Below are positions 38,613 through 52,937 of a stretch of DNA of 64,000 nucleotides, piece by piece. Origin of the DNA: an uncultured bacterium (lineage in GTDB: Bacteria > Patescibacteriota > Minisyncoccia > UBA6257 > 2-01-FULL-56-20); contig OY970126.1 in the NCBI GenBank assembly GCA_963705915.1, positions 408,616-472,615 of the forward strand, in the 5' to 3' direction. Position numbers and translations under genes: made by a program. Each line of letters opens with the position of its first letter. Position 1 is the stretch's first letter. Below the pieces are notes generated by a model. That model made no database searches. It saw only the letters and a list, made by a program, of their open reading frames with translations, and was not told the DNA's origin.

Positions 38613-39560
38613 TTAATCATTCCCGAGGCAGCTATTGAACGCCTGCACTTCGGCGTTGTATTGGTTCGCGTCCTGCTTCACTTGCGCAGCAAGTGAGTTA
38701 TATTGCTGAACGAGGGCATTATACGTGGCGACGTCGTTGTTATACGCTTCGCCATATTTTGGGTTCGCCGCATTGATGGCCGCGTCGTCGTTCGAAAGTT
38801 CGACGGCCATTTGGTTCAACTGACTCTGACCCGCGTCGATCGTCGCCTTGAGCGACGTATCAACGGACGGACACGCAGAAGCCGGCCTGCCGAATATTTG
38901 CACGGCAATCCAGGTGGACTGGCCTTGATAGGTGCCTTTGCCAACGGCAACGCCAATTTCCGTGTATCCGCTATTCAATATATTCGCGCGATGACCGGGG
39001 CTATTCATCCACGCAGCGACAACGCCAGCGTCGCCATTGAAATTCCCGAGCGCCAAATTTTCGCCGAGCGCCAAATAGGTGTAGCCGACATCGCTTGCGA
39101 CGGTGACTGCACTCTCTCCCGTCGGCGAAACGTGCGCAAAATATTGGTTACTAAACATATCTTCGAGCCGCAACGTGGCGATGTCGTCAAGCAAGTCGTC
39201 TTCGGTGAGCGCCGTCAAATTGCCGTTGTTTGCCCGTTGAATATTGGTTTGCGAAATAACGCCCTCGTCCGTAAGCGGGGCACTCGAAGCCGTCCCAGTT
39301 TTTTTGTTCGACGCGCCGGCAAGCGTACCCGTCGCCGTGAGCGGCGGCGGTAAAAATGTTTTTGCGGCTTCGGTCGTTGCAAATTGCTCGATCGAATTCC
39401 CTAGCAGGCTCACTTCGCTGAGCGACGCATAATTTGCGAAATACCACACCGCCGCGCCTGCGACGCATACAATGATGGTGATGACAACAAGCCGGTGCTT
39501 GGCTCGTTTTTGATAGTGTTCGACATTCACGTTAGTTCCGCAAATAACGCCGCACCGCAA
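38613..39560 (-). CDS. Membrane-anchored CAP/SCP/PR1-like (YkwD-type) domain protein
   Basis: N-terminal TM; RLEDMFSNQYFAHVSPTGES...GENLALGNF...AWMNSPGHRANILNSGYTEIGVAV CAP-domain motifs; start overlaps ftsX 3' end by 28 nt (start uncertain). Confidence 0.6.
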   Translation of the reverse strand: MRCGVICGTNVNVEHYQKRAKHRLVVITIIVCVAGAAVWYFANYASLSEVSLLGNSIEQFATTEAAKTFLPPPLTATGTLAGASNKKTGTASSAPLTDEGVISQTNIQRANNGNLTALTEDDLLDDIATLRLEDMFSNQYFAHVSPTGESAVTVASDVGYTYLALGENLALGNFNGDAGVVAAWMNSPGHRANILNSGYTEIGVAVGKGTYQGQSTWIAVQIFGRPASACPSVDTSLKATIDAGQSQLNQMAVELSNDDAAINAANPKYGEAYNNDVATYNALVQQYNSLAAQVKQDANQYNAEVQAFNSCLGND

Positions 39561-40440
39561 CGAAACTCGAAAATGCGCCGATCAAAACGCCGAAGAGCAA
39601 TTCATAGAGAAGCAACTGCGGCAAATGGGTATAGAAATATTGAAACAAATTGAGGCCGGGTATAAATGAATTCATATACGGATTGATGAAGTAGAGGGCT
39701 GGCGCAACAATAATCAAACTCAACGTCGCGGCGATAGCCCCGCAAATCATGCCCTCCACCACATAAGGCCCGCGGACCATGCTATTTGAAGCGCCGACCA
39801 CCCGCATGACACCGATTTCATCGCGGTTCGAATAAATGGCAAGGCGAATGGTGTTGAAGATAACAAGCCCGGCGATAAGCGCGAGCAGGATGGTGAGCAC
39901 AAATCCGCCGGTCTCGACATTGCGCACGATCGTCGCCAATTTATCGATGATATCCTGATTTTCCGTGTAGCTCACCGTGTCGATATAAGGAGAAAGGTTT
40001 GGCGAGGCCAGATAGTCGGCGATCGCAGCATATTGGCTCGGATCTTTTGCCGTGATGTTAAGCGACGCTTCGAGCGGATTGGTGTCGAGCTCATTCAAAG
40101 CCTGCGTCACCGTGGGATCGTTCGCGTGCGTTGCTTCAAAATTTGCGAGCGCCTGGTCGCGGGAGATATACGTGACATTCTGCACCTCGGACAAACTTTG
40201 AAGCGACTGCTGGATATTCAAAATCTGATCTTCCGAAGTGTTCGTGTCGAAATACACACTGATGTCAATCTTGCTCTGGATTGAAGTGGCGGCTGCCTGC
40301 GTCACCACGTTAAAAATGATGAGGCTTGCGAAAACCGTGAGGGCGACGGTCATGATGGCGACCGTTGCGGTTGAAAGCCAGCCGTTGCGCCAGAAATTTT
40401 TGAAACCATAATGAAAAATGCGCGAGATGATGGTGAACAT
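39532..40440 (-). CDS. ftsX: Cell division ABC transporter permease FtsX
   Basis: 4-TM FtsX architecture with large periplasmic loop; immediately downstream of ftsE (ATGA-type junction at 40440). Confidence 0.85.
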   Translation of the reverse strand: MFTIISRIFHYGFKNFWRNGWLSTATVAIMTVALTVFASLIIFNVVTQAAATSIQSKIDISVYFDTNTSEDQILNIQQSLQSLSEVQNVTYISRDQALANFEATHANDPTVTQALNELDTNPLEASLNITAKDPSQYAAIADYLASPNLSPYIDTVSYTENQDIIDKLATIVRNVETGGFVLTILLALIAGLVIFNTIRLAIYSNRDEIGVMRVVGASNSMVRGPYVVEGMICGAIAATLSLIIVAPALYFINPYMNSFIPGLNLFQYFYTHLPQLLLYELLFGVLIGAFSSFVAVRRYLRN

Positions 40441-41123
40441 TAGACTAAAATATATTTTCCTTTTTTCTCATCGCGGATCACGTGGCCTTTATCGAGCGTG
40501 ATCACGCGGCGCTCAAGTGAATTGATCACTTCGCGATCATGGGTTGCAAGCACCACGGTCGTCCCGAGCTGGTTGATCTTTTCGAGCAAGGTCACAATTT
40601 CAAACGTATGAAACGGGTCGAGGTTTCCCGTCGGCTCATCGGCAATCACAACTTCCGGCCGGTGGATCATCGCGCGCGCAATCGCAACGCGCTGGCGTTC
40701 ACCGCCGGAAAGTTCGTTCGGAAAGTTTTTCATTTTATCACCGAGGCCAACCATATCGAGCACCTGGGGTACAAGCTCCATGATTTCCCGTTGGGGCCGG
40801 CCGGCGACTTCAAGCGCAAACGCAACGTTTTCATAGGCATTCTTGGTCGGCAACAGACGAAAATCCTGGAACACAACGCCGATATGTCGGCGGAATGCCG
40901 GAAGGTCGCTGTCCTTAAGTTTGTTCACTTCGTATTGGCCAAAAAAAACACGGCCCTTGCTGGGCTTTTCTTCACCAATAAGAAGCTTGATAACCGTGGA
41001 CTTTCCCGCGCCAGAACGGCCAGCGAGGGAAACGAATTCGCCGGGATCGATTTGGAAATCTACTTCCTCGAGTGCAACGCCGTGGCCGGGATAATGTTTT
41101 GAAACGCCCTGAAAAACGATCAT
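40440..41123 (-). CDS. ftsE: Cell division ABC transporter ATP-binding protein FtsE
   Basis: Walker A GRSGAGKST, signature LSGGERQRVAIARA, Walker B VVIADEPTGNLD; 227 aa. Confidence 0.92.
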   Translation of the reverse strand: MIVFQGVSKHYPGHGVALEEVDFQIDPGEFVSLAGRSGAGKSTVIKLLIGEEKPSKGRVFFGQYEVNKLKDSDLPAFRRHIGVVFQDFRLLPTKNAYENVAFALEVAGRPQREIMELVPQVLDMVGLGDKMKNFPNELSGGERQRVAIARAMIHRPEVVIADEPTGNLDPFHTFEIVTLLEKINQLGTTVVLATHDREVINSLERRVITLDKGHVIRDEKKGKYILV

Positions 41124-41135
41124 ACGCGTTCTCTC

Positions 41136-41144
41136 ATTGTAGCA
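41136..41144 (-). promoter_or_regulatory. Extended -10 element TGCTACAAT 12 nt upstream of ftsE ATG
   Basis: Minus strand ...TTTTTTAAAAATGCTACAATgagagaacgcgtATG. Confidence 0.3.
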
Positions 41145-41163
41145 TTTTTAAAAAAGGAAGTCA

Positions 41164-41240
41164 GCGAAAAGACTCCTGCAGTGCTTTTGCGTCACCCAGT
41201 AAGAACAAGTGACGCAAAAGCACTGCAGGAGTCTTTTCGC
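41164..41240. repeat. Perfect 32-bp inverted repeat with 13-nt loop (77 nt hairpin) between prfB and ftsE; on the minus strand it is followed by a T-tract, so it likely acts as a very strong intrinsic terminator and/or is a palindromic repeat element
   Basis: gcgaaaagactcctgcagtgcttttgcgtcac (41164-41195) / gtgacgcaaaagcactgcaggagtcttttcgc (41209-41240), zero mismatches; minus strand continues TGACTTCCTTTTTTAAAAAT. Confidence 0.7.
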
Positions 41241-41355
41241 AAGTTTACCCTTTTCTAGAAATTCTATTATTCGCCCAAGGTTTCGGAAAGCACAAAGACA
41301 CTCTTTTCGCGTCATTTCTCTCTTTTCATAAACTGGCAACGAGAGATCGCTCAGA

Positions 41356-42415
41356 TTATTTTTCGAGCATTGCCTCGATGAACATATCAATATTACCGTT
41401 GAGCACTTCGTCCACCCTGCTTGTTTCGACTTCGGTGCGGTGATCTTTCACGAGTTGATAGGGATTCAAAACATACGAACGAATCTGATTCCCCCACTCG
41501 GGCTTCACCTTTGTCCTAAGTGCACTCACTTCTTCCACTTTTTCTTTTTCCATCAATTGAAAGAGTTTTGCCTTGAGCAATTTCATCGCATGTTCACGAT
41601 TCTGTTGCTGACTCCGTTCGGCGCGGGCGCTCACGGCGATGCCGGTTGGAATATGCACGATACGCACCGCGGTCTCCACTTTATTAACATTCTGCCCACC
41701 GGGACCGCCGGAACGCGAAAGTTCGAGTTTAAGATCAGACTCGGGAATCTGCAATTTTGATTCTTCGAGTGGCGGCAGATCGGGAATCACTTCGACAAGC
41801 GCAAACGAGGTGTGGCGCAATTTTTTCGGCGAAAATGGCGAGATGCGCACGAGCCGGTGCACGCCGGACTCGTTCTTTAAATAACCGTAGGCGTGGTCGC
41901 CCTTAAGCTCGATAGTCCGCGAGCGCATGTTGTCGTCGATTACTTTAATTTTCCAGCCTCGCGCCTTGGCGTAGCCTTCGTACATCAGCCCGAGCATGCG
42001 GGCCCAATCTTCCGCGTCTTCCCCGCCCGCTCCGGGATACACCGAGAGCACCGCCGCCTGCGCGTCGTAGCGTCCGACGAATAATGTTTCGAGCTCAAGA
42101 TCGCGGAATGCGCGCTTCAATTCGTGAAACTTATTTTCATCGATATTTTTGCCGCCGCTTGTGCCGCCATCGCCTGCGCTTTTGTCGAGTTCCGCAATGC
42201 CTGCTTCTATTTTTCTATACTTCTCGATTTTATCGTTCAAAACACCGAGCTCGCGGATTTTTTCATCAGCTGCTTCGCGATTTTTCCAAAAATCAGCCGA
42301 TGACATTTCGGCGGTAAGTTCCGCGACCCGTTTTTCTTTTCCCGCGATGTCAAAGCCGCCCGCCGAGCCGGCGGGCTTCGTCCTTCAGTTCTTCGAATGA
42401 TTCGATCTTATTCAT
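41356..42415 (-). CDS. prfB: Peptide chain release factor 2 with programmed +1 ribosomal frameshift
   Basis: ORF0 ATG 42415 ... [21 protein letters not shown] then CTT TGA C (TGA at 42352-42350) with upstream GGCGGGCGG SD-like element; +1 frame continues [24 protein letters not shown]... to 41356; SPF motif (RISPFSP) and GGQ ([11 protein letters not shown]). Confidence 0.9.
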
Positions 42416-43331: not shown

Positions 43332-43363
43332 GAATCATAAGTACCTTCTCTTCGGTTGCCACA

Positions 43364-43392
43364 GCCCTGACTTCGGTCGGGGCTTTTTTATT
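43364..43392 (+). terminator. Rho-independent terminator after the tRNA-Arg/tRNA-Cys pair
   Basis: GCCCUGAC-UUCG tetraloop-GUCGGGGC followed by UUUUUUAUU. Confidence 0.6.
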
Positions 43393-52614: not shown

Positions 52615-52641
52615 GTTGTAGCCCCACGGGGAATCGCCCCG
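52615..52641 (-). repeat. Partial duplicate of tRNA-Glu 3' end (T-arm + acceptor 3' strand + trailer): att-like direct repeat
   Basis: Minus-strand CGGGGCGATTCCCCGTGGGGCTACAAC vs tRNA-Glu 3' half CGGGGTTCGATTCCCCGTGGGGCTA+CGACAAC (25/27 identical, 2-nt deletion in T-loop). Confidence 0.55.
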
Positions 52642-52741
52642 CGGCTCAAACGCTCGCCGTCGCTCGCGTTTGGCCTGGGCACCGCCTCGCGGATTTTTTC
52701 TGCTGAAAAAATCCGCTCCGGCGGTTCGATTCCTCCATGAA

Positions 52742-52862
52742 ACAAACAACAAACAAGAAAGCTCCTGAGAAGGGCTCTCGGAGGCACGAAGGTGCCGAGA
52801 GCGGAGCGGCTCGCGCAGCAGCGCGAGACCGCGTACCTTCTCAGGAGCTTTCTTGTTTGTTG
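52742..52862. repeat. Imperfect long inverted repeat (about 30-nt arms) enclosing additional short palindromes
   Basis: aaacaaacaacaaacaagaaagctcctgagaagg (52742-52775) vs ccttctcaggagctttcttgtttgttgt (52834-52862); inner CTCGCGC-AGCA-GCGCGAG hairpin; neighbouring 11-bp palindrome GCGGATTTTTT/AAAAAATCCGC at 52691-52718 and T-arm-like GGTTCGATTCC at 52725-52735. Confidence 0.5.
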
Positions 52863-52865
52863 TCG

Positions 52866-52937
52866 TAGCCCCACGGGGAATCGAACCCCGATTTACGCCG
52901 TGAAAGGGCGCTGTCCTAGCCATTAGACGATGAGGCC
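52866..52937 (-). tRNA. tRNA-Glu (anticodon TTC)
   Basis: D-arm GTCT-AATGGCTA-GGAC and anticodon arm GCGCC-CTTTCAC-GGCGT nearly identical to E. coli tRNA-Glu; T-loop TTCGATT; acceptor GGCCTCA/TGGGGCT contains G1.U72 and U5.G68 wobbles (slightly atypical). Confidence 0.7.

Follow-up and report, generated by a model that had tools for sequence, protein, structure and literature searches.

A perfect 32-bp palindrome between prfB and ftsE of an uncultured Patescibacteria bacterium and the long intergenic hairpins of its relatives

The palindrome and its setting

Between prfB and ftsE of an uncultured Paceibacteria-like bacterium of the Patescibacteria lies an exceptionally long palindrome, and the locus raises the question of what such an element does there, that is, whether it closes the prfB transcript, belongs to a family of repeats, binds a protein, or has no role at all, and how it arose. 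The earlier note on this DNA had described a 77-nt hairpin with a mismatch-free 32-bp stem at positions 41164–41240 of the window (the whole stretch of DNA analysed, 64,000 nt), and the palindrome was indeed found at exactly these positions. Read along the minus strand, it consists of a 5′ arm (GCGAAAAGACTCCTGCAGTGCTTTTGCGTCAC, 41209–41240), a 13-nt loop (TTGTTCTTACTGG, 41196–41208), and a 3′ arm (41164–41195); the two arms, 32 nt each and spaced by 13 nt, are 100% complementary, giving 32 consecutive Watson–Crick pairs with no G–U pair among them. The 77 nt were predicted to fold as RNA with −64.2 kcal/mol, compared with −20.2 ± 3.3 kcal/mol in shuffled sequences (z = −13.4), and as DNA with about −42 kcal/mol on either strand. 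The 64-kb window contains just one other long perfect inverted repeat, which is shorter, and 100 dinucleotide shuffles of the window contained no match to the arm with three or fewer mismatches. Past the stem, on the minus strand, an 8-nt spacer (TGACTTCC, 41156–41163), which overlaps a weak −35-like CTGACT, leads from the stem base to a run of six T residues (41150–41155) as a possible U-tract. The predicted fold pairs this run with an A-rich stretch upstream of the hairpin (UAGAAAAGGG, 41248–41257, minus strand), forming a putative lower helix of 10 bp that is weak and lies beyond an internal loop of 7 × 5 nt.

The partial echo of the arm that had been noticed nearby also proved real. It is a diverged third copy of the arm at 41287–41310 (minus strand), in direct orientation relative to the 5′ arm, identical at 17 of 24 positions (71%) and 47 nt away from the hairpin; one other arm match of this quality was found across 128 kb (both strands of the window), and the proximity of the echo to the hairpin has a p value of about 0.01. 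Neither a single arm as a hairpin of its own (z = −0.8) nor the echo as a small terminator (z = −0.2) folded better than shuffled sequences.

A Logan contig from the run ERR11523672 carries the ftsE–ftsX region and the right flank of the palindrome, identical to the window, and starts with exactly 30 nt (k − 1) of the arm, because a k = 31 graph necessarily breaks at a perfect palindrome; k-mer assemblies in general are broken by such palindromes, this contig being an example. It argues that the sequence is real and not the artefact of one assembly, and the same run possibly also underlies the window itself. The Logan contig with the upstream 74-aa gene ends within prfB, short of the palindrome, and gives no second contig for its left flank. 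Rfam, applied over the whole window at the gathering threshold, gave no family match for the hairpin, and, with E values up to 10 over 41050–41420, returned only miRNA-precursor models far below threshold, which are generic hairpin matches. An 80-aa ORF spanning the hairpin (41148–41390) had no Pfam match and was treated as spurious.

The names given earlier to the flanking genes were upheld. Upstream lies prfB (RF2; 41356–42415, minus strand), with PCRF and RF-1 domains and the +1 frameshift site CTTTGAC (CTT TGA C at about 42355–42349, minus strand), which is preceded by a G-rich Shine–Dalgarno-like stretch; the programmed +1 frameshift explains why the records contain no single ORF for the exact RF2 product. 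Downstream lie ftsE, encoding an ABC ATPase (40440–41123, minus strand), and ftsX (39532–40440, minus strand), which overlaps the ftsE stop (ATGA). A Pfam scan of seven proteins around the hairpin gave RF2, FtsE, FtsX, and a CAP-domain protein as its neighbours, with every neighbouring gene on the minus strand. The prfB–ftsE spacer, 232 nt in length, contains in minus-strand order the prfB stop, the echo (45–68 nt past the stop, 41310–41287), the A-rich stretch, the hairpin, the promoter, and ftsE, with 115 nt from the prfB stop to the hairpin and 40 nt from the hairpin to the ftsE start.

After the stem, the minus strand reads TGACTTCC, TTTTTT, AAAAA, TGCTACAAT, GAGAGAACGCGT, and the ATG of ftsE, in the order claimed in the earlier note, which had assigned TGCTACAAT (41136–41144, minus strand) as an extended −10 element for ftsE. 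This element starts 19 nt past the stem, ends 12 nt ahead of the ATG, and is conserved in relatives, including those with spacers of 26–30 nt; over the final 25 nt of the spacer, the nearest relative shows 96% identity. Moreover, a TANNNT box was present 4–22 nt before the ftsE start in 99 of 131 distinct relatives, compared with 60.5 ± 5.3 in shuffles, and a TG-extended box in 28 of 131, compared with 5.0 ± 2.0. The assignment as a putative ftsE promoter is therefore credible and, by its conservation across relatives, well supported. The modal distance from the −10 box to the ftsE start among the 131 relatives is 7 nt, implying a leaderless or near-leaderless ftsE mRNA. The box is found clade-wide ahead of ftsE, even where the prfB stop is only 9–30 nt away.

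Long perfect hairpins in related genomes

A search with FtsE matched 80 species-representative genomes at 75–97% identity, all from uncultured Paceibacterota, Parcubacteria, or Liptonbacteria (Patescibacteria), and 80 further metagenome contigs; the source genome itself is absent from both collections. The prfB–ftsE synteny is widespread in these relatives, with a spacer that is mostly 9–60 nt long and free of hairpins. The palindrome is absent from the closest relatives, namely L002/L083 (FtsE 97% and RF2 85% identical; spacer, 92 nt), L084 (FtsE 95%; 30 nt), and L085 (FtsE 94%; 57 nt). With these, only the final 25 nt of the spacer could be aligned (AAAATGCTACAATrAGAGAACGCGT), corresponding to the promoter region, and the state before insertion cannot be reconstructed, as the spacer of the nearest relative is alignable over this region only. 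Since the closest relatives share the promoter without the palindrome, the hairpin was gained in the lineage of this species, on top of a conserved promoter.

Perfect inverted repeats with loops of up to 100 nt were then counted in the window together with 80 genome loci, amounting to 548 kb. Twenty-one had arms of at least 17 nt, against a chance expectation of about 0.003, and 35 had arms of at least 15 nt; in 150 kb of E. coli K-12, none with arms of at least 15 nt was found, the longest arm being 14 nt. The arms of the 21 repeats measure 17–32 nt, those of the window and of L014 being the joint-longest. Arms from different loci have unrelated sequences, and nearly all of the repeats lie outside real genes. 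The window hairpin fits this class, defined by a perfect repeat of at least 17 nt with a loop of no more than 100 nt in noncoding DNA at the 3′ end of a gene or tRNA. In the literature, we found nothing published about long hairpins or terminators of CPR/Patescibacteria.

Intergenic hairpins with 17–32 perfect base pairs recur at the ends of genes and tRNAs and beside promoters, with sequences that turn over fast. They lie directly past tRNAs (31 bp in L072, 22 bp in L010), between convergent genes (L057, L073, and L034), at the ftsE–ftsX junction (31 bp in L009, 30 bp in L104, 29 bp in L105, and also in L014, L066, L069, and L080), and in the prfB–ftsE interval. A −10-like box and the start of the next gene follow the hairpin in the window and in L009, L072, L012, L090, L005, and L103. 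In the prfB–ftsE interval, four other hairpins were found besides the 32-bp one of the window, with sequences unrelated to it. The perfect stem of L061 within the spacer measures 29 bp. That of L090, also perfect, measures 30 bp, and behind it come the T-rich tail GCTTTTGGTTCTTTT, an A-run, and the TG-extended −10 box seen in the window. In L005/L089, a stem of 16 + 11 bp precedes the T-rich tail GTTTTTGGTTTTT, an A-run, and this box, and in L103 a 27-bp stem precedes the T-rich tail ATTTGGTTCTTTTT, an A-run, and once more this box. Compared by eye, L005 and L090 have homologous stem bases, with differences that are mirrored in both arms. In most of the long hairpins of the relatives, no T-run follows the stem. 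Imperfect members of the class showed, on the sense strand, eight G–T mismatches versus four A–C mismatches, a small sample for distinguishing constraint at the RNA level from that at the DNA level.

The hairpins at the ftsE–ftsX junction of the clade comprising L009 (2071–2154), L102 (1602–1657), L103 (2675–2762), L104 (2677–2757), and L105 (2561–2645) are homologous, with stems of 17–31 bp, and 9 of 36 base pairs have been changed on both sides. These compensatory changes indicate that at least part of the class has kept its pairing over time. An invariant GTATAAT and then the ftsX start follow these hairpins, and ftsX may have its own promoter there in this subclade. The 5′ arm of the hairpin begins inside the last ftsE codons. 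The ftsE–ftsX spacer is about 100 nt long in this subclade; in the window, the two genes overlap.

The second long palindrome of the window (52746–52863) has a 28-bp perfect stem around a 62-nt core of two hairpins (core, 52775–52830). A covariance model of the core, designated R1, detected nine copies with scores of 42–78 bits, located in L003 (689–794), L006 (489–586), L008 (about 137–254), L014 (1034–1170), L093 (591–708), L103 (1849–1963), L114 (about 30–140), L126 (2087–2222), and the window (52746–52863). The core of this three-way-junction element, about 55–62 nt long, contains two covarying hairpins, one of the form CTCGGAG..GNAG..CGAGAG and the other a 7–8-bp helix with an AGCA loop. 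In an alignment fitted to the model, 10 of 18 pairs were changed on both sides and 91% of the cells were paired, and none of 500 shuffles reached the covariation observed in this fitted alignment. The outer stems are wholly different in sequence between species; seven of the nine nevertheless have 20–32 bp and are perfect; L014 and L126, counted among the perfect ones, have a short internal loop between the long perfect stem and a 4-bp inner helix, while the stem of L008 has 12 perfect base pairs and that of L114 contains one mismatch and one wobble pair. The copies are situated at tRNA 3′ ends, before ftsE (L103 and L114), and after ftsX (L126). No Rfam family matched the element, which is a candidate for a new structured RNA or a structured terminator. 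Pattern matches to the core in viral contigs were at chance level, with a best model score of 21 bits. The prfB–ftsE hairpin was considered as a relative of this element and rejected: R1 hit the window at 52775–52830 only and gave nothing at 41164–41240, where the loop is 13 nt and the core is absent, the one resemblance being a single 10-mer shared with the L126 copy (p ~0.01).

By itself, the prfB–ftsE element is of modest interest, being a boundary hairpin of unusual size from a single uncultured species, and its value is as an entry to the pattern; our interest lies mainly in the class of hairpins and less in this copy. In these streamlined Patescibacteria, few regulatory signals have been studied and genetics is lacking. 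If the hairpins are terminators or processing sites, they would define the way in which transcripts are ended and kept apart across a large uncultured lineage, and, if so, the prediction of operons and terminators in metagenome-assembled genomes could be improved.

Function and origin of the palindrome

The position of the hairpin, the analogous layouts in relatives, and the pairing maintained within the class together point to a boundary element acting at the RNA level. In our best reading, the palindrome is peculiar to this species but follows a habit of the whole lineage of these Paceibacteria, in which very long perfect hairpins are placed where transcription units end. By analogy, it would best be read as working like an intrinsic terminator or an intercistronic stabiliser or processing hairpin; it lacks the adjacent U-tract that defines canonical terminators and the multiple copies that define REP/MITE families. 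Whether it impedes read-through from prfB and/or fixes the prfB 3′ end, thereby insulating the ftsEX promoter, is in our estimation an evenly balanced matter. The minus-strand transcript of prfB would fold into the 32-bp stem just ahead of the T-run and of the independent, near-leaderless ftsEX promoter; read-through would be stopped or strongly impeded by termination or pausing of the hairpin-plus-U-run type; the 3′ end of the prfB mRNA would be made resistant to nucleases, or cleavable by RNase III; and the ftsEX promoter would be kept free of incoming polymerases. We infer that the hairpin is transcribed through and that termination or processing would take place there.

The earlier note had taken the hairpin for a probable terminator of prfB transcripts and insulator of the ftsEX promoter, a proposal that gains from the same layout in L090, L005/L089, and L103 and loses from the non-canonical geometry. 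Like intrinsic terminators, which may be bidirectional with an A-tract and a U-tract, the window hairpin lies on the transcribed strand past a stop codon (115 nt from that of prfB), has an A-rich stretch before it and T6 after it, and is close to the next promoter. Unlike them, it has a mismatch-free stem of 32 bp, whereas intrinsic terminator stems usually have 5–14 bp, and its U-run begins 8 nt off the strong stem, compared with the 0–2 nt from the stem base expected of a U-tract. The U-run adjoins just the weak predicted lower helix, which itself consumes it, and a terminator pattern scan at T6 returned only a spurious 6-bp hairpin. A terminator of canonical size does occur in the window, at 43363–43384, with a 9-bp stem and T5 directly after it. 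The scarcity of T-runs after the long hairpins of the relatives also speaks against a terminator class, and, as most members lack one, the class may not consist of terminators at all. Furthermore, since most relatives manage with a hairpin-free spacer of 9–60 nt, the element is dispensable for the operon.

Perfect Watson–Crick pairing devoid of G–U pairs carries no information on the strand that acts, and a young neutral palindrome would fit equally well. Template switching at quasipalindromes is known to create hairpins, to extend them or make them perfect, and to render the arms of inverted repeats homogeneous (PMC7202029, PMC8604942, PMC10710096). Its products, exemplified by E. coli hotspots and by hairpins of primate microRNAs arisen de novo, resemble the window hairpin in having perfect arms, a diverged copy, and a lineage-specific origin (PMC7202029, PMC10710096). 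The perfect arms, the 71%-identical direct copy nearby, the absence from relatives, and the lack of any other copy fit a local inverted duplication, and we infer from the sequence that the hairpin was born recently in this manner, probably by a replication template switch within the spacer and not from a mobile element. The palindrome might be a neutral by-product, that is, a new template-switch product in a tolerant intergenic spot that plays no part in expression and has so far escaped decay and deletion. The mechanism is well documented elsewhere (PMC7202029, PMC8604942, PMC10710096), and the neutral explanation agrees with the undecayed complementarity, with the restriction to a single species whose closest relatives are palindrome-free, with the local copying suggested by the echo, and with the unrelated arms of the hairpins of different species. 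Against it, homologous hairpins have been retained from species to species in the lineage, with compensatory changes, the outer stems around the conserved core remain mostly perfect despite full turnover of their sequence, which indicates maintenance and not mere birth, and hairpins cluster at gene ends and beside promoters in compact genomes where most prfB–ftsE spacers are 9–60 nt. We regard the neutral explanation as rather improbable.

Template-switch products have been described as mutational events, whereas the class found here recurs in the genomes of a bacterial lineage and is apparently maintained there. A mutational mechanism by which the arms evolve in concert may account for the stems being strictly perfect. 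In its widest form, this would mean that these Paceibacteria mark off their transcription units by hairpins of great length and strict Watson–Crick pairing whose arms co-evolve through template-switch copying, some of them enclosing a conserved three-way-junction RNA not described before, with the prfB–ftsE palindrome as a newborn member; we offer this generalisation tentatively, as a possibility that is on balance doubtful. A diminished repertoire of hairpin-processing nucleases would perhaps allow copying between arms, and stems could then turn over completely between species yet remain perfect.

The weak terminator geometry, the class mostly devoid of T-runs, and the hairpin-free relatives make cleavage by a double-strand-specific RNase a serious alternative to termination as the mechanism. 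The hairpin would then be an RNase III processing site, at which prfB–ftsEX read-through RNA is cut in the stem, uncoupling the stability of the two messages. RNase III needs roughly 20–22 bp, and the 32 consecutive pairs exceed the required stretch of about 20 bp or more of uninterrupted double-stranded RNA; many hairpins of the lineage lack a T-run and lie within operons such as ftsE–ftsX, and the long perfect stems that enclose the conserved structured core resemble processing stems. As in the intercistronic hairpins of phage T7 and the rRNA leader–trailer stems cut by RNase III, long double-stranded RNA would lie between cistrons; however, in known sites, single cuts are usually guided by bulges or internal loops, unlike in the window hairpin. 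With an independent promoter lying directly downstream, ftsEX would not need processing for its expression, and no ERLEFLGD-type signature motif of RNase III was found in the 64-kb window, a result that is uninformative beyond that window. Processing of this kind is, in our judgement, unlikely, and the boundary hairpin described above, whether it acts by termination or by protection of the message, remains the preferred reading.

A further reading is a mobile palindromic repeat of the REP/BIME or MITE type, present as a copy or remnant inserted between prfB and ftsE. The earlier note had listed a REP/MITE-like element among the things that the length of the palindrome would fit, and had itself taken a single-copy arm and relatives lacking a long palindrome to speak for a simple oversized terminator instead. 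This is the situation that we found. Within the 64-kb window, which is the part of the source genome covered by the copy search, both arms of the hairpin were the only matches with three or fewer mismatches; BLAST of the whole spacer found nothing else in the window or in 80 related loci (L002–L081), and the 22-nt core of the arm had no exact match in the GTDB species genomes (596 Gb), the JGI metagenomes, or IMG/VR. The flanks (...GGAAGTCA / AAGTTTAC...) contain no direct repeat that would represent a target-site duplication, and no transposase or RAYT gene was found among the seven proteins scanned. The single copy and the palindrome-free closest relatives therefore favour an oversized boundary hairpin over a REP or MITE. 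In favour of a mobile repeat are the spacer, about 140 nt longer than that of the nearest relative, and the 10-mer GCAGTGCTTT shared with the outer stem of L126; the window hairpin is, like REP/BIME elements of enterobacteria (e.g., at malE–malF), an intergenic palindrome between co-directional genes and could likewise shield the upstream message from 3′ exonucleases as an mRNA stabiliser. REPs are imperfect, about 35 nt long, conserved in sequence, and present in hundreds of copies, unlike this perfect 77-nt element that was single-copy wherever searched, and we consider a mobile repeat very improbable.

Finally, a site acting at the DNA level on the ftsEX promoter, either a cruciform or a protein-binding palindrome (operator, recombination, or resolution site), agrees with the perfect two-fold symmetry without G–T pairs that constraint on DNA would produce and with the overlap of the stem base with the −35 position, but is highly unlikely, since an extended −10 promoter needs no −35 element, all relatives that share the promoter lack the palindrome, no candidate binding protein was among the seven proteins scanned nearby, and the operator suggested in the earlier note is left without support by half-sites of 32 bp, far beyond known operators, none of which to our knowledge has a half-site near this length.

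Further features of the related spacers and of tRNA genes

Several other elements were observed in the spacers of the relatives. A gene for a protein of about 109 aa with a conserved C-terminal ...DLQIRVxKLEx is inserted between prfB and ftsE in L005 (1170–1496) and also in L089, L090, L103, L094/L095, L008, and L010–L012, where the spacers extend to 400–1000 nt; L007 retains only a remnant of it. A motif of the form TCGCGAAT(N)GGTGG, with the palindrome TTCGCGAA, recurs in the prfB–ftsE spacers of distant relatives, as in L002 (TTCGCGAATCGGTGG) and in L065 (ATCGCGAATGGTGGC, with more copies of CGCGAAT). This motif, which is not evident in the window, may be a protein-binding site. Short tandem motifs of the CTAATTTCTAA type, in direct and inverted orientation, occur in the spacers around ftsE of some Liptonbacteria-like relatives (L059, L062, L066, L039, and L157; for example, L066 3685–3794).

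Near the tRNA-Glu gene of the window (52865–52937, minus strand), the stretches 52616–52640 and 52715–52735 hold a partial duplicate of the tRNA 3′ end (ccccacggggaatcg) and, on the plus strand, a T-arm-like sequence (GGTTCGATTCC) that is preceded by a 10-bp A/T-rich hairpin (52689–52716). ARAGORN called no tRNA there; a degenerate tRNA or the scar of an old integration event might account for these sequences. Leader–trailer helices around tRNAs were considered as a general feature and rejected, as the extension was confined to one tRNA-Ser in three species and was lacking in the 70-odd other tRNAs examined. In this tRNA-Ser, found in L015 (1258–1369), L008 (872–975), and L010 (1067–1170) and also in L101 and L104, the acceptor stem is extended by a leader–trailer helix of 9–13 bp (ATGCAAAGC / GCTTTGCAT), which is paired through the discriminator position.
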